A stretch of 64,000 nt of DNA from Blasia pusilla (taxonomy: Eukaryota), in NCBI GenBank assembly GCA_050084515.1, contig CM114271.1, positions 19,778,001 to 19,842,000 on the forward strand. Reading direction: 5' to 3'. Shown piece by piece: positions 18,108-39,895 of the stretch (within the stretch, counting starts at the first letter, position 1; each line of letters opens with the position of its first letter). The notes beneath the pieces were generated by a model. It made no database searches. It worked only from the letters and a program-made list of their open reading frames with translations, and was not told the DNA's origin. The translations under genes and the position numbers were made by a program.

Positions 18108-21100
18108 GATGACCTAATTCTTGTACCACGTTTCTTTGTTCAATTATAGCTGCATTTGCAACTAGGTGTAGCGACCAGACAAGGAAGTTCTGGATGATGT
18201 AGGAGGGCTTGACTGAGGGATAACGCCTGCCAGCGATCTAAGCACTTGAAGGACCAGCATGGGCGTTGCGTCACTTTGCATCAACTCCAACAACTGAATA
18301 GAACAGTGGGATGTGATCAGTACACGGAAGTAATTTCTCCTAGAACAGTGAAATAAAGGTAAACTCGTCCTTCTTTGAGCCATCTTCAGCAGGTCCACTG
18401 AAGAATTAGAGATCGCCATTACCAAAGAAAGCATGGTATACAGTATGCTTCTTAGTATACGTCACTTAAAGCCTCGGTTCAGAACAAGCAACTGACGAGT
18501 GGCGTCCCAAAGGCGACTCCCTGTCGTAAGTGGAGTTCGGATGGCAAACAGAACTATCACCTCCAAAGTCACCCCGAGCAAAAACACTACGTAACCTTAA
18601 ACGGAGAGAGAGGTCGTTTCCGAATCGAGAGCATCCGAAAAGCAACCCTGGAGTCTGAAGACCATCCACATGAAAAATCATGATGCTCCTGATAGCTTGA
18701 CCTTCCAAATTGACACTTCCACGAATTGCAACACTTCCACTGCAGTACATTTGAGAGCGATCGTGACGTTTCACGTATGACTTTCACATTACGCCTCCAC
18801 TTAGAGCATTCAGTACAACTCCAGGAGCAGTTGTTCCCTCCTCCAAGTGATTTTTCAATAACAACTCTGCATGGAGATACTTAATGCTAGATCAGATCCA
18901 GAAAGCCGTGTGGAACTGAAGTGCTACTCGGTGCCTGATCTAGTACTTACAATTAGAAAGATGTCGTCGCGAATGTTGAGCCCCGCAAGCCGCGTCAGCT
19001 CTAGTACCTGCTGTTGCTCTGCAAACATTGAGCAGGCACAAGCTACCAACGATCAACGTCTGCAGCGGTTGATTCCCACTGAAACTCAAAGATCAGCACC
19101 CAATACCACAAGCGACAGAGATCTTCCACACTCCGGAGCGTACACTAAAACAACCGTCTGCTCCTCCTGACTCGTCTTCCTTCATCGACACTGGCGTCTA
19201 TTGCTCGCAGCAGGCGATGGCACGCACTAGGTACTCAATTACCGCTAACAAAATTCTCCCTACTGATGAGCACGAGATTGGCGAAAACACCGGAAGCGAT
19301 CGGATCTTACCCGGGGTGAGGGGATCGCGGGGAGCCATTGCGCCATAGCCGAGACCAGATGAGGAAGCAGTGGCGGATTGTTCAAACGCGCATCAATCCG
19401 CGCGAGATTACCCAGATCGCGAGCGCAAGAAGAGGAGGAGCGCAGGAAACACAGCCCTAAGGCACGGAAGCGTGAAAGGAAAGAGCACAACGTAAGAAGA
19501 GGGCTCCACATCCAGCAGCAGGAGCATGAGTAGGAGAAGGCAGAAAGGTATCTCCCGTGTAAAGAAGCTCCGAGACAGAAAGCCGAGGAGACAAGAGAAT
19601 GAGCCCAACCACAGTCATCAAGATAGTACCAGGGATCCCAACCTGGTGGCAATCCCTGCTCCCATCAGGGTTTCCACGGAGTCTCTATTACGGCAATGAT
19701 TGTTTTGCGACTGCAGTTGAGAACTAAGTTGGGACGCCGTAACCACGGCGTCCCAACTTAATAATTGCTTTTGGTTGAATCTTTCCTTTGAGTCCGTAGT
19801 TGTAATGACTCGATTGCGACTGCGGTCGGGAACTACGTTGAGAGGTCCTGTCTAGAATGATTGCCTCTCGTTGAATTTTATTAATTTTATCTAAATTATT
19901 AAAGTTCCAGGGAAAGAAATGAAAAAGTACAATTTCCCTGCGTATGAAAGACCATGTAGGAAATGATGTGGCCAAAGTTTCTATCATACATCTCAAACAT
20001 TTAGAGATGGCATGTCATGTAAGAAAAAAAGGATAGCCATGTTGAAAGGCCCTAGCAAGAATGATTTTTTTGAATTTTCCGAATGAAAAACAATCCAAAT
20101 TTTATGTTGTAGATGCAGTCCACCATATTAACATCAAAAGCGTAGACGCTCTAAACCATCACCTATATTTCTCCTTGGCCTTCTCTCAAGCATATTTGTA
20201 AACATGTATATAATAATTGGCTACAACAAAATACGTAACATTTTTTAATGTTGCTTTACCCCATTAGACGGGTAGAAATAGAAATGAATAGGGATTTGAA
20301 TGAAATATATAGTAATAAAATATGATGAAAAAATTATGAATTTTTACCTCAATTCATATTTAATGGAAAAAAGAAATAAAAATTTAATGGAAGAGTAGAT
20401 TTTGTTTAAATTTTATGGAAAGATAAAATTATTTAATATATTGGGATATCATTTAAATTTGAATGGAGGATTATAATTACTAAGAACAGTGAAATGTTAT
20501 TACTTTTCTAAGATTTTAGAAAATAGAAATCATATTTAAAATTTAAAATAAATAACAAAATAATTTTTTAAATAATTGTATTAATTCAAATGTTATATTT
20601 TGGGAAAGGAACTAAATTTAATGGAAAAGGAAAATTATTCCGTTAATTAAAATTAGCTAAGATTTTGGTAAGAGAATATTATTTTGGTGGGAAGAATGGA
20701 AGTGGAAGAATAGTGATTGTTTGAGCTTTTACGGAGGAGTGAAATTATTTAGGGGAGATGGGTGTTATTTAAAGGTGAAATTTTCTTACTCTTTTAACAT
20801 TTAAAAAAGTGGAAATTATACTTAAGTTTTAAAATTAAATTAAATTTTAAATTTTAAATATAATTTTAAAAAACTATTATTGACACTTGCTTTTTAAGGG
20901 CCTATTGACATGTGGTAATTGGACAAGAAAAAAATGTTTCACGTGTTATGGGCATAAAGAAATAAGTTTGAATTTGTGTGCAACATCATTAATCCCTTCA
21001 CTAACAAAGGCTCTTCAAACACTGTGCTTAGATGTCCAAATTGTGCACCATTTCTTTCCAAATGTGCAAAAATTCCTGATCTACAATGTCATCAAATTTA

Positions 21101-22619
21101 TTCCCTCATTCAACTTTCCATCAGAAATTGAAGACCCAAGGAGATCGACACACCAGGGGAGAGATCGGGAGAGATACCCTTGGACTTCTTGGGATGTTTT
21201 GCAGGTATACCAGGAGATGATAGCCACAGCATCGAGTGAGGTTATGGGCACTGCATGTGGAGGAGATCAGAGTTTGCAGTTGGTTGTAGGAGAGCGGCCA
21301 AGTGTTGGTGTTCGAGACGGGGTTGCACCATAGCAACCATCGATACCCGTGTCGGAGAGTCCTACCATAGTCACGATGGAGACTTGGGAGCCAGATATGG
21401 ACCCTAAGTTGACAGGAGAAGAGCGGCGCCGGATACATCAGTTCCTTAGGAGTTATAAGAGCTGCTTTGTGTTTAGCATGGAGGATTTGGGTACTGTGAA
21501 AGGACCAGGATCCGCATTGAGTTGTCGAGTGATACGCCGATCTTCCGAGACCCTACAGGTACAGTGATATGGAGAGGGCTCTGATTCATAGTAAGAGCCA
21601 AGACTTGGTTGGAGCAGGACTAGTGGAGATGTCGCATATGCATGGGGAGTATGCATCTGCCACTGTCATGTCTGCCAAGAAGGATGTGTATGGCAACTAG
21701 ACGGATAGGCGAATGTGTGGGGATTACCCGCCTATCAATCGACATACGAAGTCTGATAGGTATGCCATGCCCACTCCCGAGGAGATCTTTGATGCGATTG
21801 GTCTAGCAAAGGTCTTTAGTTCATTTGATTTGCGAGCCGGATACCATCAGCTGCCTATCAGATTGGAGGATAGGCAAAAGACGACATTTTGGGGCATCGA
21901 TTCTCACGGGAAGGATTGTTTGTACCAGTGGCGGTTCTTACCATTTGGGTTAAGGAACGCCCTGGATGAGTTTCAAAGGGTCATGGATAGAATCTTGGCA
22001 TGTTTGGATTTTGCTAGGTGTTATATTGATGATATTTTAGTCTTTAGTGCCACAGTTGAAGAGCATGAGCGAGATCTAGAGGAGGTATTTCGACGATTGT
22101 AGTTACATGGGCTGAAGCTACATCTAGGCAAGTGTAAGTTCTTCTCCGACCAAATTGAGAACTTGGGTCATACAATATACCCAGGTGGCCTTGGTGTTCT
22201 ACAGACGAAGGTAGAGGCTATTTCACGCATTCCACGCCCTAAAGATGTAAGCCGTGTTTGTGCATTCATGGGATTGGCGAACTTCTATCGTCGGTACGTC
22301 AAGGGATTCATTTTGATTGCGAAGCCATTAACCTTGCTGACCAAGGTGGATCATGAGTGGCAGTGCGGGGATGAGCAGGAGCGAGCATTTCAGCTGCTCA
22401 AGGACATATAGACGTCCGCGCCCATCTTGAGGAGATCGATCAAGGGGCGTCCTTTCCAATTGCACACAGATTGGAGCATGTTGGGGCTTGGAGTGGTGCT
22501 CACCCAACATGATGATGAGGGTTGAGAGTTCGTGGTGACTTACGCTAGCCGTTCGAGCAACGTTGTAGAGGCGAGGCACAACTCGTATGAGGGTGAGTGT
22601 TTGGTTGCGGTGTGGACTG

Positions 22620-22985
22620 TGTCATGACCATACGGATTATGTCGTAGAGTATAGTGTGCTAGTAGAGGACATTCCTTATGTAGGACCGTAGTGGCTTGGT
22701 AGAGATGCGGTTCCATACATAGGGTTGGGGGTTACTCAGTTGGGGGTGAGTTTCCCAGTAGGGCCCGCTCTTAGGTTGGAGGATATAAGGTGGAGTGCAT
22801 TCAAAGAACAGTCAGTTCTTTGAGTTGAGCCTGTTGCGTTGGGAGTTAGCCTTGGTAGTGAGTAGAGCTCTTGGCTATGGTGTTTCCCGCAAGCTTCGAC
22901 CTGGATTCTCCCATCGTGGAGTGGGTTTGGCTCGATTGTATGTGATTGTAAACGTGTTTTATGACAGTAGGTCTTTCACGGATTT
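22620..22985 (+). repeat. Element B repeat A1 (direct copy of A2 at 31580-31947), contains a TATA box at 22784
   Basis: Near-identical from tgtcatgaccatacgg to ctttcacggattt in both copies. Confidence 0.92.
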
Positions 22986-22986
22986 C

Positions 22987-22999
22987 ACTCAAAGAACTG
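22987..22999 (+). promoter_or_regulatory. Putative self-priming primer-binding site of element B
   Basis: actcaaagaactg, just after A1, is the exact reverse complement of cagttctttgagt (22813-22825), which starts ~29 nt after TATAA. No TGG-type tRNA PBS is present. Confidence 0.7.
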
Positions 23000-24358
23000 G
23001 AGTAGATCGATGGTAGCTTCGATTGTAGATCAGTAGGATCTGGTTAGGGTTGATTGTGTACTCAACGGTGGATGTTCGGGGCTTTTTTCCTATGTTGGAG
23101 GTGTGAATCAGGTGCGTGGTTGATTGGGAAAGAAGCGCCTTGCTGAGAGCTTTCCAACGCGCTGTAGATCGCCGGATTTCGTCCAGGGAGTTGGAAGTTA
23201 TCAAACATTGAAGATTCTGGTCGTGTTCGACAGTTTTCTGATGTGGAGAGCTTGGAGTGCGGAAGCTCTGTTGAAGTTCATCCAGATCGGGTGAGAGGTT
23301 CCTATTGCTACTTGTATTGTGATCTCATGTGAATACATGTGCTACATGTATTCACGGATTTCACTCAAAGAACTGGAGTAGATCGATGGTAGCTTCGATT
23401 GTAGATCAGTAGGATCTGGTTAGGGCTGATTGTGTACTCAGCCGTGGATGTTCGTGGCTTCGAGGCAACTCGTGGTAGCTCGGGGCGAGTGGGCGTGAGA
23501 GGCGGAGTAAGGAGCAAGGAGCAAGCAAGCAAGCTTGCTTGCTTGGGCGTGAGGCAATTTTTGCAGGATTTGGGATTTGAGTTTTGCATAATCGGTCACC
23601 CATCTTTGGGCTATTTCGCTGGAGGACGCTTAACTCGCTGAGTTCTTAATTATGCCCGGTGTCTGCATTGTTGTAGCTCATTTGGTCTTTGTTCGAGATG
23701 TGTTAGGCGCTTTATGCATCTCAGGTTTTTGTTGATGTACCTCTAGCGCATAGTACGGTGTAGCCTCTCCATGCAAGTGATATTTTCAGTGTCTTTGCGA
23801 GTTCGACTAGCACGTCATCGACCCTTGGCGGAGTAGCTATTGCGTTAGAATTGTGTGGTGGGTTTTGTGGATTCGGGGCACCACGTTTGGTGGATTGTGT
23901 TACCTTGATTTCCATTTGCGGTTGGAGGGTTGTCGTTGGACTTCACGTATCGGATCCCCTCCATCGTGCTTTTGCTTCTTGCGCGCCCATTGTTAGGGTT
24001 GACGCTGATTTCGAGTAGTGTTACTCCTGTGTGCTCGCGATAGTGAGGTGGAGTGATGACTAGTAGACCGTGGGAGGCTTCTGGTAGTGATGAGAGGTTA
24101 GATTGCCTACACCCATAGCTAGTAGAGCAACATCGACGTCACTTGGGTAATTTGGTGGTGGTGAGGCATCGGCGTTGGTCATCACGGAGCTGTCGGGTGG
24201 TCGGTTGGGGACCGTGGTGCGGACGGTGGTGGTTTCACACGGAGTGGATTTAGGTATCGGCTACCTTTTCCACTTCCGACGGTTGATGAAGAGGAGGACC
24301 AGGGTGTTCCAAACACCGAGTCTTCTACGTTGTTATCGAGTGTTGCAGCTCCATTGAT

Positions 24359-25654
24359 TTGGGACATGGACGGTGGATATGGGGCCATGAAGGCCCACGA
24401 CGATATTCGGGTGCAAAGTGGGCACCATTGAGTTGGAGGACTTCATGCGGGAGTTTGATACGTGGTGTGATATGCGATGATGTTGAACGCCACGTTGTTT
24501 ACACCCTTCTTGGCTTGGAAGGGGTTGTTTCAGCACTTGGAAGGACCACCCATGGATGATTACCATGAGTTTAGGAAGGACCATATTACTAAGATTGAGG
24601 CATGGAGACAATATTGGTCTCCAAGCTATGTGTCTATCACCCATGGTGGTATTGGTAGTAGTGCTCCTACTATGCCGGCCCGGCCCGGCGTTGAGTGGTA
24701 CGAGTACGAGCCGGAGTGGGGATACCAGTGGAGGTACTAGTGGGGGTACTAGTGGAGGTACTAGTGGAGGTACTAGTGCCCCACCATCGTTCAGCCCGGT
24801 TGCAGAGTTCTTCAAGAGGTTGAAGAAGAACTATCAGGGAGTGAAGACGGAGAAGTTGAGGAATCTTCAGGACTTTGAGCGAAAGACTGGTGAGAGTCTT
24901 TGTGAGGCATACACTCAGTATCACGCTTGATTTCGATTACCAGGGTGTGTGACCGAGGATCAAGTAGTCCGATTTTGGCACGGGATCTTGGACAGAGATT
25001 TGCGCCGTAGGGTACGTGATGCTACTCTTATGAGTGATGATTCACCCACATTGACCCATGTGTTTGCTTTATCTGAGAAGATTGAGCTTAACATGGTGAA
25101 GGAGAGAGTGGTGACATCCGCATTCAGTAGGGATACAACTACTACTTCTCGGGTTCAGCCGCCCACCTCACAGTCTCGTAGTAGTGGTGGTGGTAGTAGT
25201 AGTGGGAGTCGTGGGGGGTACATGCGACCTCAGTCAAGTCGTAGAGGGACATTTGTGCAGAGACCATTGCCTTCATTTGCTGCCCCGCAGCAAGGACAGT
25301 CATGTTGGACATGTGGAGGTGATAATGTTAGGAAGTTTTGTCCCCAAGAGGATGGGAGACAGACTTTGGAGGATGGGCCTCGATCGGCCCCAACTCGGTG
25401 TGATCATTGCGGAGACTAGGTCATCCTCGAGAGCGTTGCTTTGATCTCCATCCGAGTTGAGATCAGGCCGAGGCCGTGGTGGAGTAGCTCCGAGAGGCCG
25501 AGGTGGTAGAGGTGGTAGGGGTGGTAGAGGTGGACCCGGTGGTTGGAGAGCCTACGGTGGCTACCCCTACCACTACGACAAGTCGACTATGGTGCTGCCA
25601 AGATTGAGCTTGATTAGAGCGAGAGTTGGCTACTATGGTGGTATCCAAAGATAG
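24359..25654 (+). pseudogene. Element B gag (frameshifted), with zinc knuckles and an RGG-rich tail
   Basis: FERKTGESLCEAY, CWTCGG..C, CDHCG and RGGRGGRGG; 12-bp tandem repeats encoding GGTS at ~24720-24778; homologous to the element C gag. Confidence 0.75.
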
Positions 25655-26269
25655 ATCAGTTCGGGAGCAGGGGCTTCCACCTCTTATGGAGGGGATGATC
25701 TCTCTTATATGGCGAAAAGACAAAGTTGAGGCATCGGTGCGATTCTGAGAGGAGCCACTCGGCGTCGAGCCACGTGGTGCTCTTGTGGAGTTGGACCCAC
25801 AGAGGGGTGAGGGCCGGGAGGCGGCTAGGCTTCCCGGTCATTCTTGTTGTCGAGGTGCTTAGGACTCCATCCATGGTTCCTCACGAGCCTATTGAGCCGA
25901 CAGTGGGGATCGAGGCATCTACATCGCGTGTAGTAGACACGGATGCAAAGATCAATGCGATTGTGCGGATGGCAACCGGTGTTGGGATCCCCATTGTTTT
26001 CGCCACGGAGCTTATGGCTTTAGGAGTTGACTTAGCTCCTGTATTTGATTAGCGACCACGTTGTGTGAACGTGGGGTGTTATTCTTGCTACACGTGTTGA
26101 GGTGGATGATGGTGTTGCGGTGGAGCGACCCTCTATGTCGAGTAGCATTGAGTACGGTGCTACTTGGCGTGCAAAGAATGGGCGAAGATGGATGCATTAC
26201 CAGCCCGGCCAACCATTGATCGTGAGAGGCTTACACTGGTGTATGTATGTTGGACAACCGAGTGGGATC

Positions 26270-26660
26270 TTCCGATTGGTGAGTCCCAGACAGGACAGTG
26301 TATAGACCAGATAGAGACTTGTTAGACTCGGTGCCCAACCTTTGATGTTGGGAAAGGCGCATGTATTGGTTTGGGTATTCGGAGGTCGAGCTTGAGCCTT
26401 GCCCATTCCGATTCAAACATCACTTGGAGGAGCCAATGATAGGTCTCAATTCATGACACGGGAAAAGTTTTCTATCTGATTGAGACCAGATCATGCGATC
26501 GATAGCTCCCGGTTGGGAGTATCTGCGGTAGTCACATCACCGAGTCGTATGATGTACTAGTTGGAGGAGCGATGTGTACCCGATGGGTTTTCAGATGGAT
26601 TCTTGGATCGAGAGGCGTCTTCTGAGACCTGGTTGGCAGTCCGGGATGGACGTATGAGCC
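26270..26660 (+). pseudogene. Element B aspartic protease (frameshifted)
   Basis: LLDS-GAQPLMLGK and ESYDVLVG match the element C protease RVLLDSGAQPLMLGK. Confidence 0.65.
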
Positions 26661-27039
26661 AAGTTCTGTGAGATTTATTTCTGGGGCTCGACCAGGAGGG
26701 TCTTCCCCAACAAGTGTTAGCATCTGGCTGGTTTTAGTGGAGTAGTCACTTGGCCGAGAGACTTTTTGAGGGTAATGTTTCTTCTATGGATTCTCTGCGC
26801 ATGAGGAGGTAGAGGAGGTCCCTATTTTTTTTTGCTGCAGTGGCATCCTCATCGTTGGATGTGCCACTTTGGAGTTCAAAGCGGTGCACTACGGCAGAGG
26901 CTCATCGCCTAGTGCAAGAGGCTTGGTGTGAGGTGTTATACCTCACGAGAAAGAGGAGGCCCCACGGCGGACTCCTACAGTCGGTCCAGATTAGGTTATC
27001 CCCTTTGGATACTACACCCATTGTATGGCAAGTATCCGC

Positions 27040-27990
27040 GGAGGGTATTTGTGTGTTAGATCTCTTTGGTGGGATTAGCACTGGTTTGGTCTGCAGATGT
27101 TGCGGGCCGGTATTCTGTCTTGGAGATACGTGTATGTGGAGCGAGATGAGACGGCCAAGAGAGTCTCATCTCGACATACTAGTCAGTTGATGCGGAGATA
27201 CCCTGAGTTGTTGCCGCCATCAGCTATTCGTGGGTACCAGCGTGCTTTACCATCACACATTGCATTGTTGGGGGCGCAGGACCTTGAGAGGGTTGGTCCT
27301 GTGGATTTGGTGATTGTTGGATGGCCATGTCGGGTCATACACGTCTTTGGTCGTGGTGAGGGATTACATGACCCTAGGTCTCGATTGTTTTGGGAGATCT
27401 TACGGGTGTTACGACATCTTGAGTTCATCAGCACACGTGCTCTAGCTTACATTCTGGAGAATGTTCCATTGTTGGGTGACACTCGGACCCGGATGATGGC
27501 GAGTGTTCATGAGGTGCGCTCTTAGATTGGACCAGAGGTGTTGTTGGATGCAATGCGAGTTGGCTCGCGTGCACATCGTCCACGCTTGTGGTGGACAAAC
27601 TTGTTGCCTATGGAGGTTCTACGTCGAGCATATGATGCAGTGCAGCGGGATCCTCGCCTTATAGTGGATAGTATCTTGGATACTGGGCGACTTTCTCAAG
27701 TGGTGAGGGTTATTGATCGGTCACCCATGGCAGTGGTGAACCGTGTGGGCCAGCCTAGGATGGCACTACCCACATTTGTGAGTTTTCCTCGTCACATGCC
27801 TACTGAGGAAGGTGGTCCGGGGCTTGTATGGGATTCTCATGTGCGACGGCAGTTGGTGGAGCCTAACGCGATGAGAGAGAGCGTGCGATGGGATTTGCTC
27901 TTGGTGTGTGGCGGTTGCTTCTATTTCTCAAGCTTCACGACGTCATGTGTTGGGTCAGCCATGGACCTGAATTGTTTGACTTGGATTTTG
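27040..27990 (+). pseudogene. DNA cytosine-5 methyltransferase domain (DNMT3-like) within the element B pol, frameshifted
   Basis: Motif I VLDLFGGISTG, II YVERDE, IV VDLVIVGWPC, V GLHDPRSRLFWE, VI YILENV, VIII LDA..GSRAHRPRLWWTN, and IX/X-like EPNA..ER..MGF and AMD, in canonical order. Confidence 0.9.
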
Positions 27991-28299
27991 AGTCTTGGTA
28001 TGGGCGGCAGCGTCGACTTCGGACTATGTCGTGGGTCTTCCACCCTTGTAATGAGCTCGATGGCTAGGGGACAGTAGAGGCATCGGTGGGGCGAGGAGAG
28101 TAGTATTTTGCATCCTTGGAGTAAATGGGATGTAATGGCTCGGCATGTGGAGTTGGTTGCTCATCTTTGGTGGAAGAGTTATTTGCTCGAGATGATGGTG
28201 TAGCTAAGGGTGTACCATCTTGTGAGGGGGTTATGTAGTGACCAATGGCATCGTCCTCTCCCTCTAGTGTGACAAGTGGAGGAGACTTGGGAGCCATTA

Positions 28300-29680
28300 C
28301 TTGGGCCCAAGCTTACGGGAGGTGAGAAACGACGCTGACACACGGTTCCTACGTGCTTATAGGAGTTGTTTTGCCTTTAGCATGAAGGAGTTGGGTTCTC
28401 TGGTTGGACCCGGTATACGGATTGATTTGGCTAGTGATACGCCAATCTTCCGTCTTCCCTACCGATATAGTGATATGGAGAGGGACTTGATTGAGTAGGA
28501 CGTTGGACCTTTTGGAGGCTGGATTAGTGGAGTTGTCGCATGGAGAGTATGCATCGCCCACGGTCATGCTCGCTAAAAGGATATGCATGGAAACTACGGA
28601 TAGGCGGATGTGTGGAGATTACCGTCCTATCAATCGGCAAACCAAGGCGGATAGGTATGCCATGCCTACACTGAGAGATCTTTGATGTGGTGGGACAGCA
28701 AAGATTTTCGATGCTTTGGATCTTGGCAGATACCATCAATTGCCGATTCGGGAGAGTGACAAGGCCAAGACAACATTTTGGGGTGTCAACTCTCATGGCA
28801 AGGATTGTTTGTACCAGTGGAAATTCTTACCCTTTGGGTTGAAGAATGCACCTGCCGAGTTTCAAAGAGTGATGGACAGGATCCTAGCAGGGTTGGATTT
28901 TGTTCGGTGTTACATTGATGATATCTTGGTGTTCAGTAACACGGTGTTTGAGCGGTTGAAAGTTCATGGTCTACGTTTGCATCCTGGAAAGTGTAAGTTC
29001 TTCCATGAGGATGTTGAGTACTTGGGTCATGTGATCTATCCAGGTGGTTTGGGAGTTCAGCAAGCAAAGGTGGAGGCTATTGCACTTATTCCGCGTCCGA
29101 TAGATGTGAGTAGAGTTCGAGCATTCATGGGATTGGCGAACTACTATCGGAGGTATGTGAAGGGATTTAGTGCTATGGCAAAGCCTTTGAACCAATTGCT
29201 GAAATCAGATCAAGAGTGGCACTGGGGAGATGATCAGGAGAGAGCTTTTGTGGAGCTTAAGGCCCAGTTGGTGGCGGCGCCTATCTTGAGGAGACCTATC
29301 GAGGGCGCCCATTTCGATTACACATCGATTGGAGTAGGTTGGGACTTGGAGCGGTGTTGACACAACATGATGATGAGCACAAGGAGTTTGTGGTGGCCTA
29401 TGCAAGTCGTTCGAATAATGCAAATGAGTCGCGCTATAGTTCATATGAGGGAGAGTGCTTGGCAAGAGTGTGTGGGTTGTGGTCCACTTTAGGTGTTACT
29501 TGTTTGGCACCGGTTTACCCTTGTTCTCGATCACCAACCGCTCAAGTGGTTGATGGAGTCGGACAAGCTTACAGGGAAGCTTGCACGGTGGGCTCTTATC
29601 TTACAGGAGTATGACTTCCAGGTGGTACATAGACCTGGAGTTGCCAACCTTGATGGTGATGGGTTGAGTAGGAACCCATG
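28300..29680 (+). pseudogene. Element B reverse transcriptase and RNase H
   Basis: RMCGDYRPIN, LPFGLKNAPAEFQRVMD, YIDDILVF, YLGHVI, FMGLANYYRRYV, VAYASRS, DHQPLKWL, RWALILQEYDF. Confidence 0.92.
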
Positions 29681-30059
29681 TACTAGCCAAGAGGATACAA
29701 CAAGGGCTAGATGGCATGGCGAGGTTGATGAGGAGATGGTGCCAGGTTGGCATGCATCCGCCTTTTTATGTTGGTTAGGGGTGGACTCTAGTATGGAGGA
29801 CCACATGATATCTTACTCTAGTCAGAGGGTAGATGGCCAGCCTTCAGATCCTAAGGTTGGAGATGGTGGTACGGATCAGCGTGATATTCATGATGATGCG
29901 TTGGAGTTCCTACGGACCGGTAGGGTGCCAGGCATAGTGAGTGCCAAGGAGCGAGACCGTGTTCTTCAACGTGCTAAGAGGTATCGATTGGAGGGAACAC
30001 ATATTCTCCGCGTGTGGGAGGATGGTAGAGTACGAGTAGTGCCACATTTGGCTCAGAGA

Positions 30060-31298
30060 GAGCGCATTGTGCGACATGCCCATGAGAAGTTGGGACATTT
30101 TGGGGTAAAGCGTACGTATAGCTTACTCCTTGGCCAATATTGGTGGCGTGGCATGCATACTCAGGTGCAGCAGTTGGTGTCACGTTGTATCGTTTGTGAC
30201 CGGGTGAGGGCATCATTTAATGCCCCACACCACAATTACACCCCTTGCCTATTATGGGGTTGGGTTACCCTTGGAATGTGGACTTTGCGGGACCGTTAAC
30301 GTTGACTGTACGACATCATCGATATGTGTTGGTGATGGTGGAGCACTTCTCCAAGTGGATTGAGTTGGTGGCATTACCGGACAAGGCGAGTGAGGGAACG
30401 GCGTATGCGTTTCGGGATAGAGTGCTTAGTCATTTTGGTGCACCAGCTGAAGTGCTCACCGATCGAGTCTGAGTTTCAGGGTGAGTTTCGGTCTTGTGTG
30501 ACAAGGCGTTGATTGATCATCGGACCACGTCTCGAGATCATCCAGAGGCGGATGGTTTGGCTGGCGTGTGGTTCACACGGTGAAGAGGGCATTGCGCAAG
30601 TATGGCCTCTGAAGGGGCATCTTGGAGACCAGGATATTCGGTTGCCATGGTTAGCCATGGGGTATAGGTTGATCGCCAAGCATCCTTGGCTTCCTTCTCA
30701 CCTTATTTTCTGTTATACGGCCGAGATCCGGACTTGCCAGCAAAGAATTGTCGGGAGTCTAGTGAGGTGGTGAACCTTGATGACCCAGAGATGTGGATGA
30801 GGGTGTGTTCTCGAGCGGAGCTCTTTCGAGAGTTATGCCAATGACCTTTGAGAATCTTGCCATTGCTCAACACAGGGGATACGTTGCGGTATGCAACCAT
30901 TCGAGGTGGAGGTTATCGACCATCGATTGTAGGTTCCATGTGGGGACTATGTCTATTTGCAGCAGATTGCCCCAACAACGTTGGATGACGGCAGCCGCAC
31001 TATTTAACGAGTGCGCGAGGTGTTAGCTTCGGAGTTCTCATGTTGGAGGGTCGTGATGGAGTTGTTTGGAAGGACCATGTGCGTAATTGTGCGCCATGTC
31101 ATCTTCCAAATGTGGATGGTCTTGTTGACCCAAGCTTAGCCATGATACATGCTAGCTTGAGGTGCATGTTGTGTGGGTGCGGTAACGCGCCCGTATGTTG
31201 GTGTGTGATCGGTGTTCTAGGGGTTGGCATATGATGTGTTTGACTCCACGTTTGGATGTCGTTCCTACTGGAAGGTGGGTTTGTCCTCGATGTACTTA
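30060..31298 (+). pseudogene. Element B DDE integrase with HHCC zinc domain and C-terminal PHD finger
   Basis: HEKLGHFG..CIVC, VDFAGP, VEHFSKWIE, VLTDR, then LRCMLCG and a frameshifted PHD remainder at 31160-31298. Confidence 0.85.
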
Positions 31299-31460
31299 GG
31301 AGAGGTAGATGACTTGATCTTTGCATGATATGGATTACAGATGTGCGACTAACGATGGGGCAACCTAGCACCCGGCCTTCTGATTCGGGCACTCAAGAAG
31401 GTGTATAGCATGTAGTAGATGTATAGGACTACCTGGGAGTTAGAGGACCTAACCGCTTGA

Positions 31461-32055
31461 TTAGGGGGCGAGTTGTGGTACACTTGCGTTTGTGGATACT
31501 CTCGTCTATGTTATGTACGTATGTGAGTATGGTATGTCAGCGATGTATGTTGTATGAGGATGTGGATTCGCACGACAGCTGTCATGACCATACGGATTAT
31601 GTCGTAGAGTATAGTGTGCTAGTAGAGGACATTCCTTATGTAGGACCGTAGTGGCTTGGTAGAGATGCGGTTCCATACATAGGGTTGGGGGTTACTCAGT
31701 TGGGGTGAGTTTCCCAAGAGGGGCCCGCTCTTAGGTTGGAGGATATAAGGTGGAGTGCACTCAAAGAACGATCAGTTCTTTGAGTTGAGCCTGCTATGCG
31801 TTGGGAGTTAGCCTTGGTAGTGAGTAGAGCTCTTGGCTATGGTGTTTCCCGCAAGCTTTGACCTGGATTCTCCCATCGTGGAGTGGGTTTGGCTCGATTG
31901 TATGTGATTATAAACGTGTTTTATGACAGTAGGTCTTTCACGGATTTTAGTTGTGGTACACTTGCGTTTGTGGATACTCTCGTCTATGTTATGTACGTAT
32001 GTGAGTATGGTATATCAGCGATGTATGTTGTATGACGATGTGGATTCGCACGACA
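31461..32055 (+). repeat. Element B 3' module: PPT (31461-31470), B1 (31471-31577), GC spacer, A2 (31580-31947), B2 (31949-32055)
   Basis: B1 and B2 are 107-bp direct repeats (agttgtggtacac...cgcacgaca) on either side of A2. Confidence 0.92.
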
Positions 32056-33887
32056 ACTGTCACACATTTAAGGTGTTACTTATTCGGCAACCCCTTTACC
32101 ATCATCACTGATCATCAACCACTAAAGTGGTTGATGGAGTCCGACAAGCTTACATGGAAGCTTGCAAGATGGGCTTTGTTGCTGCAGGAGTACGATTTTC
32201 AGGTGGTACATAGACCTGGGACGCTCAACCAGGATGCAGATAGGCTGAGTCGTAACCCATGCCCGAGTCAACGAGATGCAACTAGAGCTCGATGGCATGG
32301 AGAGAGTGATGAGGAGTCAGTGTCAGGATGGCACGCGTCAGCCTACTTAGACTTGTTGGCTATGGAGAGCCAGAGTGTGGAGACTTTGATAGCGAGGTCT
32401 GATGGAGAGTCCTTGGATCCCGAGGCCAGTGAGGAGACGATAGGTGGCCGAGATATTCACGATGATGAAGTAGTCTTGGAGTATCTACGTACTGGCAGCG
32501 TTGCGAGCACAGTGGATGCTAGAGAGCGGGATCGGGTCCTTCACCGGGCTAGGTGGTTCCGCTGGGAGGGGACATATATGTTGCGAGTGTGGGAGGATGG
32601 TAGAGTGCGTGTAGTGCCTCATCCTTTGCAGATAGCACGTTTGGTGCATCATGCCCATGAGGAGTTGGGTCATTTTGGAGTGAAGCGGACATATAGCGTG
32701 CTCCAGATTCAATATTGGTGGCGAGGCATGCAGACTGATGTTCAGCAGTTTGTTGCCAGATGCATAGTGTGTGATTGAGTCCGAGCATTTTTCAATGCTC
32801 CAACTCCACAGTTGCATCCACTTCCGATCATTGTCGTGCGCATACATATCGCTACACACCATACATCGTTGGTCACATCTACACCACACAACACCAATCT
32901 TCCCCACACACGGGTCGATCCACACATGTACAAAAATGAACTCATACATATACATGGAGATCACACAACAAAAATAAAGAGTAGTAAAAACGGCACACCC
33001 GGCCTAAAACTCCACTCATCTACATCGGCATAACGAGCCTCATCCACCCTGTGCTATCAAGGAATCCGGACGCTAGCACCCTAGTCCTAGCTCACACACA
33101 TACAAGGGAGGTGCTCAACGGCCCAACATGAGAAAGATGGCTTAGGAAAGCCATCTTCCTCTCTTATATAGGGTTGGGAAGAGCCAAAAGGCTCTTCCCC
33201 TAAAAATAGCCCTCCCCTTGGTAACTTGCGCGCACAGGTTACCAAGGACGAGTGACCTGGTCAACAAGTCACCCGATTGTAAAAGAGCTCAACATGAAAG
33301 TTGTCAGAAACAACGTTTTTGACACAATGGACCTATCTTCAACCTCATCCGACACCGTGGGACAAAGTTACACTCAAGATAGTCCGCTGGCTCCTGCGCC
33401 CTATCCACAATAGATCTCGGCCTATCGGCTACTCAGATGTGACAGATTGTCGTGCACATACATATCGCTACACAACATACATCGCTAGTCACATCTACAC
33501 CACACAACACCTATCTTCCCCACACACAGATCGATCCACACATGTAAAAAATCAACTCATACATATACATGGAGATCACACAACCGCCCCCCTAGCTGGT
33601 AGTTGGATCCCCCCAACTCTAGATAGAAAATATCACATCTCTCTGACATGACCTACTACCCTATACACATCTCGGACACATCCATGATAAAAACATGACT
33701 CCACGCCTGCCTCACGAGGTCATCGGCACTCCTCTGTAGCTCCCGAGTCACACCCCACAATGGTGAAGAGGCCTCGCCAACATGGGAAGAGACACCCGCC
33801 ATGGCCTGTCTCTCCGTGGGACTATCCGCTATTGGGACATCCTCCGCATGTGCATTCCCCTCCAACAACTCTCCTAGCCAACTAACA

Positions 33888-36449
33888 CTACATGTGAAAG
33901 TTGCCAACGTGGTCACAAACTCGCCTCGTGATCGACCACCTCGTCCCGCAAACTGCATGGGGTAACTGACTCATCCGTATGTCACCTGACCGCCATCCTG
34001 GCCGATAAGCAACAGTCTCCTCCCAGAAGTCAAGGATGAATCCTAGGGGATATAACACTGTACTCCCCACCAACACATCGTACGACTCAGCTGGTGTAGT
34101 AATCGCACGTGTGCGCACCATAGCACTATCCGTCGCATGCTCTGGCTGGACTCTGACAACAATCTCCTATCAAGTCATATACTGAGTGGGTGATATGCCC
34201 CCAATCGAGGTCTGTATCTCGAAGGGACAAGGCTCAATGTCGGCCTTCCGTAACCCCAACGCTAAACACGCCGCCTTCCCTAACATCAAGGGTTGCGCTC
34301 CCGAATCAAGTAGGACGCGTTGCGGGTGGTATACTATCCTCGTCAAACTAACCAAGCGAAATACTCCAGCTCGGTTATCCAGTAACACTACTCCAGGTGT
34401 CACCCCTGCTCGCTCTATGGCCGGTCGAGCTGGCATATCTACCAACTTCGCCGCCGCCGCATGCCATGACTCTGTGGGGAACGTCCCAAGCACCGGCTCT
34501 GAGGGCAAGTCCACCACCTCCTGAACTACCTCTGAACAAGAAGCAGTCATCTCTCCATGCTCACACAATGTGGCGGCCAACCAGAACACCTTAGCTGGTC
34601 CAACTCCCAACGTTGCCAACTCTATGGCGGAAAATAGTGGAGTCTGACTCACTCTGGTGGCCACCTCCAACACTATGGTCGACACTGACTCCACTCGAGC
34701 CGGCATAGGAGTTAGTCACTCCAACTCCTCGTGACGTCGACGTAGGTGCTCGAATCAGAGGCACCGCTGATCGTCGAGGCACCATCGATGGTGTGTGTAG
34801 TGCCTCCAACAATGTGAACGAATGTGGAACCCTAGCCTGCCGCCCATCGGTCCCCTCTGGTGGGTCAATCTCAACTCCACCTCTCGATGGCTCGGTGCCT
34901 CTCGCAGCACCCGAGTCACCACTGCAGCTGCCTCAACCTCGGTTGCACTACACATAAATCCCATACTGGCGAGATCCTCACCCGGGTCAGGGTAAGAGGT
35001 AGAAGTTGGAGTCACACTAGCTGCTCGCCGCTCCGTGCCTTCCCTAAGCTGCATCATCGTCATGGCAGCAATCCTCTGCTCCAACTGATCCATGCGTGAG
35101 AGAAGTGCCGGCTCTGGTGCTCTTGCTCCATCTCCTCTGGCAAGTGGTGGTCCTCTACCACCAAGTCCAAGAAGAACTCCCCGACCTCCTCCAGAACGAC
35201 CGTCCCTAGGCCCTCGGCCTACCTCTAGACGTGCCCCTCGGCGAAGGTCAAAACATCTATCCCTAGTGTGACCATATATGTGGCAATGGTCACACTGGTG
35301 CTGTGGTGGGGCCATCCTCTGTGGCTCCTGAGCAATCGGAGGCGCTGGTGGTCCTCTCCCATATTGTGCGCAGTCTCTCTGCCTATGGGCCCCTCCACAC
35401 GTCCAACAAGACCACATCGGTCCCTGTTGGGCAACATATGTAGGTGCGGGTCGTTGCCTCAAAGGCTCATGGAACCCGCCCTGCTCTGTAGGCACATTGG
35501 CCCGCTCCCGTGGTACTGGTGCTCGCTGTGGCACCTGTGGGGTCACCGTCGCTCGTGGACCCATCGACTCTCGAGAAAATCCAGCGGTCACTACCTGCTC
35601 CTCACTCATGTTGAGCTCAATACGCTCATACAACTCAAAGACCACCTTCAATCTGGGCTTCGCTGTGTGAATCAGCACCGCATCTCGCACTCTCCTTCGT
35701 AGTTCTCGGTCCAGAACCCCGTACCAATACTGGACTGATTGCGCCTCAGTCACTCCAAAGGTAGCAATGATCAGCCTCCTCATGCATATGAATGCCTCTC
35801 TCAGACTCTCACCCGATCGTCGCTGAAAATCCTCTAGACTCTTCAGCTTGTCGGTGCGTACGCCCTGGTAGCTCTTCCCCAACTGTCGGAAGAACTCCAC
35901 TGTGGGGTTGAAGCTGGGTGGCCCTCTACCACCAGAGATCTCTGCCACATCGCCTATCTCACTGCCCTCCTCTCCATCTAGTCTCCGAGCTAATGGTGTG
36001 GGTCTCTCTCCTCTCACAATCCCATCATATGCCTCGCGACCACTAGTGGACACATATCCTGGAGCCCAATACATCCTCCAGGCATCGATCTCTACTGAAT
36101 ATAGTGATCGAAACTCCATGTAGTCATCCATCGGAGGACCCTCCAAGTGCTAGAACAACCCCTTCCATGCCATGAAAGGGTTGAACCGTGTCGGGATCCG
36201 TATCTCTTGGAAGTCGCACCATGTGTCGAACTCTTGGATAAAATCATCTAAGTCGATGGTGCCCACTGCACCCCGAGAAATGACGCATGCCCCGATGGCC
36301 CATGTCGTCCATCTCTTGCCAAGTACTATTGTCTCATGCGTGATCTCATCACGGACCGGTGTCGATGATGACGATCGATCCGCCACGGATGGATGTCGAG
36401 GGAGCTCCTTTCTGGTAACCCCTCGGTATCTCACTCCACTCCGTGTCAC
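33888..36449 (-). pseudogene. Element C gag-protease (interrupted)
   Basis: 463-aa ORF with CWTCGGAHRQRDC and CDHCHIYGHTRDRC knuckles; RVLLDSGAQPLMLG protease motif. Confidence 0.82.
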
Positions 36450-37421
36450 ACCACTACTACTGCTCGCACTACCCCGTTCTTCCGAACCCTGGAAGAATTC
36501 CGTGATGACAAACCCTGTCTCACCCGCTCAAGCACTCAAACTCACCGAGAGTCTCCCACACGCCTCACTAGCTCACCTATGCTACCATCAATCCCATGAT
36601 GACATACCCGGCCTCACGCACGCTTAACACTCGGGCTCACCATGAGCCTCCCAACTGACTCACCTAACCTAGCGACACTCTCTCGGGTCATACACGCGAC
36701 CCCTACTTGGCAACTGCCGTATATCCACCAACATGCTACACATGAAAAGAATCTACACTCGTCACCATCACTGCACCCATCTAGCACCAGCTACTACCTG
36801 ATACCCATCACTCTCAATCACACACGACAAGTGCGGGAAAAGGGACTCGAATGGGTAACCTGATCACGCCCTCCAACGTGCTGCACCGTCAACATGCACT
36901 CCTCCACATGATATGACAATCTCCGCAACACAACACTCTCCTCGACGAACACGTCGATCCTCCCGTCAATAGATACGGACAACCCGTCGGCGCGTTTAGG
37001 GTCCGCGCCCGTCGCCGCCCGTCAGCGCCCGTTATCGCCCGTTGTCGCCCGTCCGCCGCCCGTCGCCACCCGTTGGCTCCCGTCCGTCGCCCCTCGCCCG
37101 TCACTGCCGCGCCCTAACCCTAGACCAACCGCGACCTAGCTAGCCATCTTTACTTAACAGCCCCCCCCGGACGGCTGCAAGACCCAAACCTTCTTTTCTT
37201 CTCTCACTCACGTACACCCGACGCCCACTTCGTACTACACTCTGCCGCTGTCCCCAATCCTTGTGCACCAACAAAATCTGAGAAAAACGGACAGCTCTTC
37301 CGCCCACGGCCTTCCGAACAGAAAAATGAAAAACACCCGCAACACACGCGTCTCTTGGGGCTCCTGACCAAGGCAACTCGCTTGCCTACCTGCAAACAAT
37401 GAATTCCCACCAGCCCCCTGA

Positions 37422-37435
37422 CATCTTTCTCATGT
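37422..37435 (-). promoter_or_regulatory. Putative self-priming primer-binding site of element C
   Basis: The 14 nt abutting A1 are the exact inverse complement of 37597-37610, which starts ~31 nt after the minus-strand TATATAA (37641-37635). Confidence 0.7.
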
Positions 37436-39895
37436 AAAAATAAAGATTAGTAAAAACGGCACACCCGGCCTAAAACTCCACTCCTCAATCTACATCGGCA
37501 TATTGAGCCTCGTCCACCCTATGCTATCAAGGAATCCGGACGCTAGCACCCTAGTCCTAGCTCACACACATATAAGGGAGGTGCTCCAACGGCCCAACAT
37601 GAGAAAGATGGCTTAGGAAAGCCATCTTCCTCTCTTATATAGGGTTGGGAAGAGACAAAAGGCTCTTCCCCTAAAAAAAGCCCTCCCCTTGGTAACCTAC
37701 GCGCACAGGTTACTAGGGGCGGGTGACCTGGTCGACAAGTCACCCGGTTGTAAAAGACCTCAACATGAAAGTTGTTATAAACGACATTCCTAACACAATG
37801 GACCTATCTTCAACCTCATCCGACACCGTGGGACAAAGTTACACTCAAGATAGTCCGCTGGCTCCTACGCCCTATCCACGATAGATCTCGGCCTATCGGC
37901 TACTCAGATGTGACATCATGGGTTTAGGTTATAGATGGAGTTTGGATTTTGCAGTACCTTTGCCTTTGACAAAGCGCCATAGTTGTTATGTGTTGGTGAT
38001 GGTCGAGCACTTCTCGAAGTGGATAGAGTTGGTTGCATTGCCTGACAAAGAGAGTGAGGGAGTAGCATATGCCTTCCTAGATCAAGTGCTTAGTGATTAC
38101 GGCGTACCAGCTGAGGTGTTGACAGACCAGGGTACAGAGTTCCGCGGGGAGTTTCAGGCCTTGTGTGATCAGGCACTGATCGACCACCTCACTACTTCGC
38201 GAGATCATCTTGAGGAGGATGGACTAGCGGAGCGGGATGTGCAGACGGTGAAGAGAGGACTACGCAAGTATGGCTTGTAGAGAGGTCACCTAAGAGATTG
38301 GGACCTTCAGTTTCTGTGGTTGGCGATGGGATATAGATTCAGCACGCAGGCATCCTTAGCGTCTTTCTCACCGTACTTGTTGCTTTATGGCGGTGAGCCA
38401 GATTTACCTGCGGCCATTCGTCGAGATACTGGTGAGGTGTTGAATCTTGATGACCCTGATGTATGGATGCGAGCATGTTCTGAGAGGGCTGAGTTGTTTC
38501 GAGAGAGTGATGCCCATGGCGTTTGAGAACTTGGAGATTACGCATCATCGGGATACGTTGAGGTATGTGACCATTCGGGAGGTGGTTATCGACCTACTAT
38601 CCGGAGGTTTCATCAAGGAGACTATGTCTACTTGCAACAGACGGCACCCACGACGTTGGATGTGACTACAGGGCGCACCATCTTGAGAGTGCGTGAGGGT
38701 TTGCCATCCGGTGTTCTCTTATTGGAGGGACACGATGGTATTGTTTGGAAGGACCATGTGTGTAATTGTGCGCCATGTCATCTTCCAAACATTGACAGTA
38801 CAGTTGATCCGAGCTTAGCAATAGTTCGTGCAGGCTTGAGGTGTATGTTGTGTGGTTCCGCCCGTGGTGTAGCCACTATGCTAGTCTGTGATGGATGTTC
38901 GAGAGGATGGCATATGGCATGTTTGACGCCACCTCTCACTAGGGTTCCTCGGGGACGATGGATGTATTCGAGATGTATTTAGAGTAGGTAGATCTACATT
39001 CCGACTTGTGTCTGTGACATGGATGACTAGAAGGCGACTAACAATGGGGCCACATGAGCACCCGGCCTTCTTGCTCTTAACGTCTGAGAGATGTATGTCA
39101 TGGTAGGTAGGGATAGATGGCTATTTGGAGTTAGAGGGACCTAACCACCAACTAGGGGGGGCGATTGGAGATATTTTGGTACTTCTTGTCTCGTTGTTTG
39201 GATGCCATGAGTTAGCATGGGATCGTGTGTGTTTGTGTGTGTGTTCGGTGACAACGATGTATGTTGTGTAGCGATGTGTATGCGCACGACAATTGTCACG
39301 TCTCTTAGGATAGATCGGTGAGATCTAGTAGAGCACCTTTGTGAGTAATGGAAGACAGGCTTAGTAGGTCGAGGATGACCAATTGAGGCACCGAGAAACT
39401 TGAGAGAGCAGGTTTTCCCTTCGTTTCAGCTCATTTGGAGCCATATTGAGGAACTTATTATTTTAGGTAAGTACCATTCTGAGTATGTGATCAAAATTCT
39501 ATTATTGGTAAATGGCCCTTGACCTCCTACATCAGGTCAAGAGCCAAGGAGATGACTTGGGAGCATAGGTTACCATGGAGAGAGCTTGGGAGAGGGGAGG
39601 GATATACCTCAAGGAGAGAGAGCTTGAGAGCTCTATGGTCGTTTCTCTTGTGAGTGTAATCCAAGCCTCTCATTAGGAGAGTGGGTTTGGTTTGACATGA
39701 GAGAGAGTGCACACCTTTGAGAGCTATGGTGTGAGATGGTGTAGAGAGAGATTAGATCTTATTTCAATTCGAAATATTTTGGTACTTCTTGTCTCGTTGT
39801 TTGGATGCCATGAGTTAGCATGGAAATCGTGTGTGTTTGTGTGTGTGTTCGGTAACAACGATGTATGTTGTGTAGCGAGGTGTATGCGCACGACA

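Follow-up and report, generated by a model that had tools for sequence, protein, structure and literature searches.

The question raised by this locus is how a cytosine methyltransferase came to lie among the coding regions of a retrotransposon, and whether it belongs there. The locus is a stretch of 64,000 nucleotides from Blasia pusilla (contig CM114271.1 of GenBank assembly GCA_050084515.1, positions 19,778,001 to 19,842,000 of the forward strand), referred to below as the window, in which a reading of the sequence alone had placed a DNMT3-like cytosine methyltransferase (DNMT) between the protease (PR) and the reverse transcriptase (RT) of a retroelement. The host of this DNMT is, with a probability of roughly 85%, a dead copy of a Ty3/gypsy-type retrotransposon whose Pol polyprotein had the order gag-PR-DNMT-RT-RNaseH-IN (RNase H, ribonuclease H; IN, integrase). 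The window copy is in itself an ordinary dead insertion; its family, which is large, is described below.

The methyltransferase and its element

The presence of a C5 cytosine methyltransferase at 26909-28002 of the plus strand was confirmed by tblastn, over an interval slightly wider than the 27040-27990 proposed earlier. The longest open piece of the domain, the open reading frame (ORF) at 27079-27522, matched PF00145 with an E value of 4.3e-07 (30.1 bits, the curated cut-off being 22), and homologues scored 27 to 54 bits against the same model. With this ORF as the query, 36 of 469 candidate proteins matched at E ≤ 0.001 (best, 1.1e-59), and nearly all of these contain PF00145, so the methyltransferase reading is not due to chance. 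Its top homologues were 65 to 71% identical, with Marchantia polymorpha, Sphagnum, and Calypogeia fissa as the named hosts. There is no second DNMT stretch in the window, in which only self matches were seen below E 0.6.

Three-frame translation combined with a motif search placed motifs I, II, IV, VI, and VIII, all of them named in the sequence-only reading, and also motifs IX and X; motif V, likewise claimed there, was not separately identified. The motifs succeed one another in linear order on the plus strand, spread over three frames (Table 1). The order is equally linear in the family member P0001 and is not rearranged as in plant DRM enzymes. Both the S-adenosylmethionine (SAM)-binding motif I and the acidic residue of motif II are present in the window copy. 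The domain contains a TAG stop (27523-27525) and at least three frame changes (near 27088, 27865, and 27935), and the stretch 27328-27350, just 3' of the catalytic Cys, is garbled and out of frame relative to intact homologues. Because the residues that follow the Cys are out of frame, this copy of the DNMT cannot be active, despite its GWPC and ENVP motifs.

A profile of 16 family members, compared with the Protein Data Bank (PDB), matched 30 sequences at E ≤ 0.01, of which 29 are DNMT3A, DNMT3B, or DNMT3C (best, 1.3e-07); the last match was 4onj (1.7e-03), which we take to be a plant DRM. The first predicted structure, made from 16 close sequences, was unusable (pLDDT 34.3) and was replaced by an AlphaFold model built from 93 diverse sequences (pLDDT 95.3, pTM 0.93) that represents P0001, a homologue, rather than the broken window copy. 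In a Foldseek search of PDB with this model, all matches down to rank 50 were DNMT3A/B/C, led by 6f57_D (E 1.9e-18, target-normalised TM score of 0.84). By profile and predicted fold, the domain can be classified as DNMT3-type, with DNMT1, DRM, and bacterial enzymes being more distant. Pfam detected no PWWP or ADD reader domains in P0003, P0007, P0013, or 10 further nearest long relatives, which carry a protease upstream instead, and the domain appears to correspond to a DNMT3 catalytic domain and not to a host-type DNMT3 gene.

The gypsy-type Pol order PR-RT-RNaseH-IN is present in the window and was also seen in 33 related loci; in the window, PF00078, PF17917, PF17921, and PF00665 follow one another, although the last of these, on the integrase core (E 5e-07), scored 30.3 bits and thus fell slightly below its cut-off of 32.6. 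The claimed position of the DNMT3-like enzyme, on the pol strand between PR and RT, stood up in the PF00145, tblastn, and PDB fold comparisons. The gag region was recognized by tblastn with residues 3-338 of the Marchantia protein P0003 (47% identical, with 4 stops interrupting the frame that matched). No DSG or DSGA protease active-site motif was left in the window copy, as judged by a motif search. Every Pol region matches its homologues in more than one frame, so it is the whole copy, not the DNMT alone, that is dead.

The element spans 22620-32055 of the plus strand (9.4 kb) and is flanked by ACTG at both ends. Rather than two identical plain long terminal repeats (LTRs), it has split repeats in the arrangement A-coding-B-A-B, with A1 and A2 differing at 12 places and B1 and B2 at 3. 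The permuted repeats of the earlier description are thus real; they were found in the window copy and in 3 of the 12 long related loci tested (L041, L075, and L079), while L006 is cut by the contig end. The precedent invoked in that description also holds: the main text of de Mendoza et al. 2018 (PMC5890265) describes the same repeat arrangement for KnitGypsy-Dnmt3 of the charophyte alga Klebsormidium nitens.

All four complete copies start with TGTCATGACC and end in ...ACA, the termini of the window element being TGTCATGACC...CGCACGACA, and all four are bounded by 4-bp duplications (ACTG/ACTG, AAGG/AAGG, CATA/CATA, and, with one mismatch, AACA/AATA). Such TG...CA ends and 4-bp target duplications indicate a DDE integrase acting on DNA ends, not recombination of a circle: in its mobile form the element was DNA bounded by TG...CA, and its insertion by the DDE integrase left a 4-bp duplication. 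An alternative reading of TGTCA, as the core of a recombination or as a duplication of 5 bp, was dropped when the three further copies fixed the ends and the length of the duplications. The CA-GC-TG joint between B1 and A2 recurs in L079 (10350 region), and L041 (12740 region) and L075 (12753 region) read ...ACAGCTATCATG at this place. We take this joint to resemble an LTR-LTR circle junction, with the element ends joined head to tail. It would provide a template for rebuilding the incomplete ends of the RNA during reverse transcription, as proposed for split-repeat elements.

Several other properties of the element were recorded. The two copies of the 110-nt leader repeat, between A1 and gag, are 96% identical and spaced 376 nt. 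The ratio of observed to expected CpG is 0.75 in the element and 0.66 in the rest of the window, which does not discriminate. The coding strand of all these elements is strongly biased in composition (window 20001-32000 on the plus strand, 34001-38000 on the minus strand); the focal element has 2974 G and 1770 C, 2694 T and 2001 A, a GC skew of ∼+0.25. Codon usage or one-sided C-to-T decay could be the source of this bias.

Table 1. Coordinates of the DNMT-carrying element, its methyltransferase motifs, and the interrupted older element (window positions)
Feature	Position	Strand	Remarks
Older related element (RT and first part of RNase H)	21378-22615	+	71% nucleotide identity to 28281-29462
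5' target-site duplication	22616-22619	+	ACTG; identical to 32056-32059; older element reads on across both
Repeat A1 (5' terminal repeat)	22620-22985	+	Starts TGTCATGACC; terminus common to L041, L075, L079
Leader with internal 110-nt direct repeat	22975-23460	+	Copies at 22975-23084 and 23351-23460
gag	24361-25413	+	Broken; CCHC knuckle CWTCGG at 25303-25320
Aspartic protease region	26090-26665	+	Decayed; tblastn with PR part of P0003
DNMT3-like C5 cytosine methyltransferase domain	26909-28002	+	Between PR and RT
Motif I	27059-27085	+	DLFGGISTG, frame 2
Motif II	27127-27150	+	YVYVERDE, frame 1 (YVERDE 27133-27150)
Motif IV	27319-27330	+	GWPC, frame 1
Motif VI	27457-27468	+	ENVP, frame 1
Motif VIII	27568-27600	+	RAHRPRLWWTN, frame 1
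Motif IX	27876-27896	+	RERAMGF, frame 0
Motif X	27938-27964	+	RRHVLGQPW, frame 2
Reverse transcriptase	28364-29159	+	YIDD at 28911-28922; PF00078, E 4.6e-18 on ORF 28686-29360; tblastn
RNase H	29160-29648	+	PF17917, E 2.8e-08; tblastn
Integrase (H2C2 zinc finger and DDE core)	29943-30609	+	Broken; PF17921, E 1.3e-16; tblastn
Repeat B1	31471-31577	+	Ends ...ATTCGCACGACA; 97.4% identical to B2
B1/A2 internal joint CA-GC-TG	31574-31583	+	10-nt palindrome GACAGCTGTC; GC dinucleotide between B1 and A2
Repeat A2	31580-31947	+	96.7% identical to A1
Repeat B2 (3' terminal repeat)	31949-32055	+	Ends ...CGCACGACA
3' target-site duplication	32056-32059	+	ACTG
Older related element, continuation (RNase H and integrase zinc finger)	32060-32819	+	Matches 29485-30243

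The wider family and its hosts

An exhaustive search of cluster representatives returned 712 matches at E ≤ 0.001 and 119 at E ≤ 1e-10, and a profile of 93 diverse members recovered at least 7867 proteins at E ≤ 1e-8 (8000 candidates were scored). Among the best 120 listed, the named hosts were M. polymorpha, Marchantia paleacea, Riccia sorocarpa, C. fissa, and four Sphagnum species. Metagenome contigs contained 117 relatives, of which 80 loci (L001 to L080) were kept. The order PR-DNMT-RT was found in 33 of the 40 longest loci, the remaining 7 being cut by the contig end, and none of the 40 showed any other order. Named proteins agree with this picture: Marchantia P0013 has the DNMT at residues 460-529, followed by RT (833-919) and RNase H (997-1098), and in Marchantia P0003 (1278 aa), one open frame covers gag-CCHC-PR-DNMT and preserves every motif. 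Proteins of Sphagnum and Calypogeia likewise contain parts compatible with this order. The nearest named relatives outside bryophytes are Closterium proteins with the architecture CCHC-PR-DNMT or DNMT-RT. A single Mesostigma protein also contains the DNMT; Pfam sees that domain alone, and a local phmmer search flagged a PR-type neighbour. When contigs of four public runs (X1, X5, X2, and X9) were compared with 26800-28300, a comparison that cannot confirm the letters of the window copy itself, X1 contributed 26227 contig pieces, revealing a very high-copy family.

The DNMT was present in all related copies examined, and its key residues do not behave as neutral positions. Across 81 copies (the 80 loci and the window), the catalytic Cys is retained in 79, the Gln of PCQ in 61, the Asn of ENV in all 81, and its Glu in 75. 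In motif I, the residues at the F and G positions are conserved in 73 to 77 of 78 copies. Ratios of nonsynonymous to synonymous substitution rates (dN/dS) were calculated by the Nei-Gojobori method from aligned stop-free codons only, which lowers dN alike for all domains. Between the window and the loci (median over 73 pairs, dS ∼0.93), dN/dS was 0.37 for the DNMT, close to the values for gag (0.39), PR (0.42), and RNase H (0.39), with RT at 0.19 and the integrase core at 0.24. For the window and L006, the DNMT value was 0.33 (bootstrap 95% interval, 0.24-0.45), and deep pairs as a whole gave 0.33 to 0.40, with intervals that exclude 1, yet not below 0.2. To judge from these sequences, the DNMT is a fixed and selected part of the family and not a one-off capture.

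Liverworts and Sphagnum mosses have the family in abundance, and it also occurs in the charophyte Closterium. The DNMT domains from moss and liverworts (P0017 of Sphagnum, P0024 of Calypogeia, and P0003 and P0007 of Marchantia) are 64 to 78% identical to that of P0001, and in the DNMT tree the bryophyte sequences form a clade with a support of 100 but do not sort by host, a Sphagnum sequence lying among those of liverworts. Slow evolution or horizontal spread among bryophytes could account for this similarity. A large DNMT3-carrying gypsy lineage with the order PR-DNMT-RT, common to Closterium, liverworts (Marchantia, Riccia, and Calypogeia), and Sphagnum, mobile in bryophytes, and still represented by long open gag-PR-DNMT frames in M. 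polymorpha, would mean that land plants kept transposon-borne de novo methyltransferases; this is put forward tentatively, at a little less than even odds.

The sequence-only reading regarded the presence of such an element in what looked like a land-plant-type genome as unusual. That judgment fits the literature searched and does not fit the databases, where sequences of the family from liverworts and Sphagnum are very numerous. Gypsy elements with a DNMT were not reported from bryophytes or land plants in the literature searched, including PMC12344493, 10.64898/2026.05.21.726589, PMC10952607, PMC6453930, and 10.1101/2021.02.12.428880, although supplementary tables (PMC5890265 and PMC12344493) may list them. 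In the main text of the 2018 paper, the word "Marchantia" is absent and the sole mention of "bryophyte" concerns host Dnmt3 (PMC5890265). The abundance across liverworts and Sphagnum mosses and the link to Closterium may therefore be novel.

A second arrangement was seen in gypsy polyproteins from metagenomes (P0092, P0104, P0135, and P0220-P0237), in which the DNMT lies between RNase H and IN, often with a C-terminal PHD finger. The DNMT of these proteins is 35 to 42% identical to that of the window family. The 93 aligned proteins comprise 33 with PR-DNMT(-RT), 17 with RNaseH-DNMT-IN, 1 ambiguous, and 42 with the DNMT alone. In the tree, which retained 77 of these 93 rows after 16 with fewer than 200 of 315 columns filled had been left out, all 15 rows of the RNaseH-DNMT-IN type fell into one clade (SH-like approximate likelihood ratio test [SH-aLRT], 97) that included no PR-type row. 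This separate clade implies that DNMTs joined gypsy Pol on two or more occasions or else changed position inside it.

Decay, possible role, and alternative explanations

The DNMT element sits within the RT/RNase H region of an older relative, ∼71% identical to it, whose sequence resumes on the other side (Table 1). The window copy landed in the RNase H region of this relative and then decayed, largely by changes of the C-to-T type. Upstream of the RT of the older element there is no sequence matching PR or DNMT, and this relative may or may not once have carried a DNMT. The window as a whole is a nest of these gypsy elements. Two more fragments of the same superfamily lie further along, one with gag and PR (33960-36272, minus strand) and one with part of an integrase (37915-39071, plus strand). 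Beside the end of the interrupted element, a short repeat (32830-32969 and 33446-33584) is present in two copies that are 93% identical, with inverted partial copies ∼6.5 kb away (39248-39293 and 39856-39897, minus strand).

Decay of the same kind is seen throughout the family. The DNMT frame is closed in 78 of the 80 loci, mostly by in-frame stops rather than frameshifts, and these stops are almost all of the C-to-T/G-to-A kind: 96 Arg places have become TGA, 85 Gln and 19 Trp places TAG, and 34 Gln places TAA. The stop-bearing codons across loci are CGA, CAG, CAA, and TGG. At the middle letter of the window stop, another letter accounts for 10664 of 12867 summed depth in X1 and for all of it in X5, X2, and X9. 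In X1 and X5, the window has A or T where the others have G or C at 23 to 26 places, and the reverse holds at 8 to 9. The lesions of the window copy look like private, deamination-like decay, with a few single-base assembly errors possible, and of the two causes named earlier for the frameshifts, decay or assembly error, decay is the one supported. Run X9, which is guessed to be RNA, yielded 5 contig pieces, all unlike the window, and gives no evidence on expression either way.

In an intact member of the family, the protease would cut the DNMT out of Pol, and the enzyme would be carried in the particle beside RT and IN. Inside the particle it would methylate the new DNA of the element, so that a new copy arrives resembling resident methylated DNA; we hold this last step to be possible, at odds of about one in three. 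The sequence-only reading had likewise suggested a packaged enzyme that could methylate cDNA or circles before integration. Other roles of the DNMT are, taken together, about as likely: it might act on host chromatin or the site of insertion, act on RNA, or limit the copy number of the element itself.

Two alternative explanations concern the window copy itself. The domain might be a one-off fragment of a host DNMT3 that this copy picked up, or a host DNMT3 gene invaded by transposons, as could be suspected from the single DNMT stretch in a window that holds at least four fragments of related elements. However, the other fragments all stop short of the position expected for a DNMT, the PR-DNMT-RT order recurs in long loci and named bryophyte proteins, intron-like breaks are absent, and PWWP and ADD are found in none of the 10 nearest long relatives, all of which makes this explanation practically negligible. 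It is also most improbable, if somewhat less so, that errors of assembly produced the stop and the frameshifts in a copy that is in fact intact. Several single-base indel places in the DNMT do set the window copy apart from contigs of other runs, and indels of this kind are typical of sequencing errors. Yet the breaks extend across gag, PR, DNMT, RT, RNase H, and IN, the protease has lost its active-site motif, the A and B repeats differ from their partners, the copy has an excess of C-to-T and G-to-A changes, and 78 of the 80 related loci, from other assemblies, are broken likewise.

The remaining alternatives concern origin and role rather than the element itself. The PR-DNMT-RT elements of bryophytes and Closterium might have captured DNMT3 independently of Klebsormidium, the likeness to KnitGypsy-Dnmt3 being convergent. 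No K. nitens sequence is named among the matches listed, and the RT-RNaseH-DNMT-IN architecture, which has its own clade, is compatible with repeated capture. On the other hand, the combination of A-coding-B-A-B repeats, gypsy domains, and a Dnmt3 carried in Pol, which the main text of PMC5890265 gives for K. nitens, is unlikely to arise twice, and the PR-DNMT order occurs in another charophyte, Closterium, so that independent capture seems unlikely. A better, if still doubtful, case can be made that the DNMT is kept for something other than methylation of the element's own cDNA. It could instead methylate RNA, serve as a module for DNA binding or targeting, or hold transposition back. The K. 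nitens domain showed no DNA methylation in yeast, and the main text of the same paper lists the same alternatives (PMC5890265). Against this stand the conserved SAM-binding and catalytic motifs (PCQ, ENV, and RxR in motif VIII), none of which a mere binding module needs, and the predicted fold, which fits DNA-bound DNMT3A/B best.

Several observations weigh against the account of a selected, DNMT3-type enzyme of the KnitGypsy kind. As the main text of PMC5890265 has it, the yeast result for the K. nitens domain was considered inconclusive by its authors. The link to KnitGypsy-Dnmt3 is one of shared architecture by description, covering repeat arrangement and domain content rather than aligned sequences. 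Comparisons with PDB entries, by profile and predicted fold, are the basis of the DNMT3 placement. Close copies have dN/dS values of 0.59 to 0.83, with intervals that can include 1, and the locus-versus-locus median for the DNMT is 0.59. The loci are mostly close to one another and dead, so such values are what decay after insertion predicts, and by themselves they lend no support to selection. Finally, the DNMT frame is open over all 368 residues in only 2 of the 80 loci, so recent activity in the host of these loci is not supported.

These elements encode an enzyme of the very class that hosts use for silencing, and among them the dinoflagellate DIRS type is the only one with demonstrated activity. 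The abundance of the family, including its presence in M. polymorpha, for which knock-downs, methylome maps, and transformation exist, offers a practical system for examining the activity of the enzyme, its targets, and whether it helps or restrains the element. If the bryophyte lineage is indeed unreported, the role of a retrotransposon DNMT becomes testable in a genetically tractable land plant. In addition, counts of "DNMT3" genes in surveys of bryophyte genomes can be inflated by transposon copies.

Comparison with known systems

The host enzymes DNMT3A, DNMT3B, and DNMT3C (6f57, 6u91, and 8tci) are the best matches by both profile and fold, with target-normalised TM scores of 0.80 to 0.84. 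They share the order of motifs from I to X, and motif VIII of the window copy resembles the AHRARYFWGN of DNMT3. The identity is nevertheless only ∼20 to 23%, and the family domain lacks PWWP and ADD and is flanked by a retroviral-type protease and RT. Motif IV reads GWPCQG in the family and GSPCN in DNMT3, and an insert of ∼80 residues between motifs VIII and IX distinguishes the family, the query being 368 aa long versus ∼285 aa for the solved domains.

Among retroelements, the RT-RNaseH-DNMT-IN(-PHD) polyproteins likewise carry a DNMT in gypsy Pol but differ in its position and clade. SymbioDIRS-Dnmt3 of Symbiodinium has, according to the main text of PMC5890265, a Dnmt3-type domain in Pol and A-coding-B-A-B repeats, and its DNMT performed de novo CG methylation in yeast, the sole activity shown for such enzymes. 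That element uses a tyrosine recombinase, whereas the window element has a DDE integrase (PF17921 and PF00665), TG...CA ends, and 4-bp duplications. The window element thus shows neither of the DIRS-type features, a tyrosine recombinase and the lack of a target-site duplication.

The closest counterpart is KnitGypsy-Dnmt3, described in the main text of de Mendoza et al. 2018 as a gypsy element whose Pol ORF contains a Dnmt3 of the non-rearranged type, with conserved key residues, Ka/Ks below 0.2, and few copies in K. nitens (PMC5890265); its repeats are, in the legend of Fig. 4c, the same as those of a DIRS retrotransposon. A passage of a 2026 preprint names "streptophytes (Gypsy-DNMT3)" (10.64898/2026.05.21.726589). 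The likenesses include gypsy domains with a Dnmt3-type domain in the Pol ORF, A-coding-B-A-B repeats, retained catalytic residues, and, in deep comparisons, dN/dS below 1, and the reported silencing of the K. nitens copies in their host is counted among them. The differences are in host and degree. KnitGypsy-Dnmt3 belongs to a charophyte alga and the nearest named relatives found here are bryophytes; no Klebsormidium sequence is named among the matches listed (52 and best 120) or in the clusters of 28 proteins, where most matches are unnamed and absence is not implied. The copy number here looks far larger than the few copies described for K. nitens, to judge from the protein and contig counts given above, and dN/dS is 0.33 to 0.59 versus the published value of less than 0.2. 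Apart from the level of dN/dS, each tested feature fits, and by repeat arrangement and domain content the window family matches the KnitGypsy-Dnmt3 kind.

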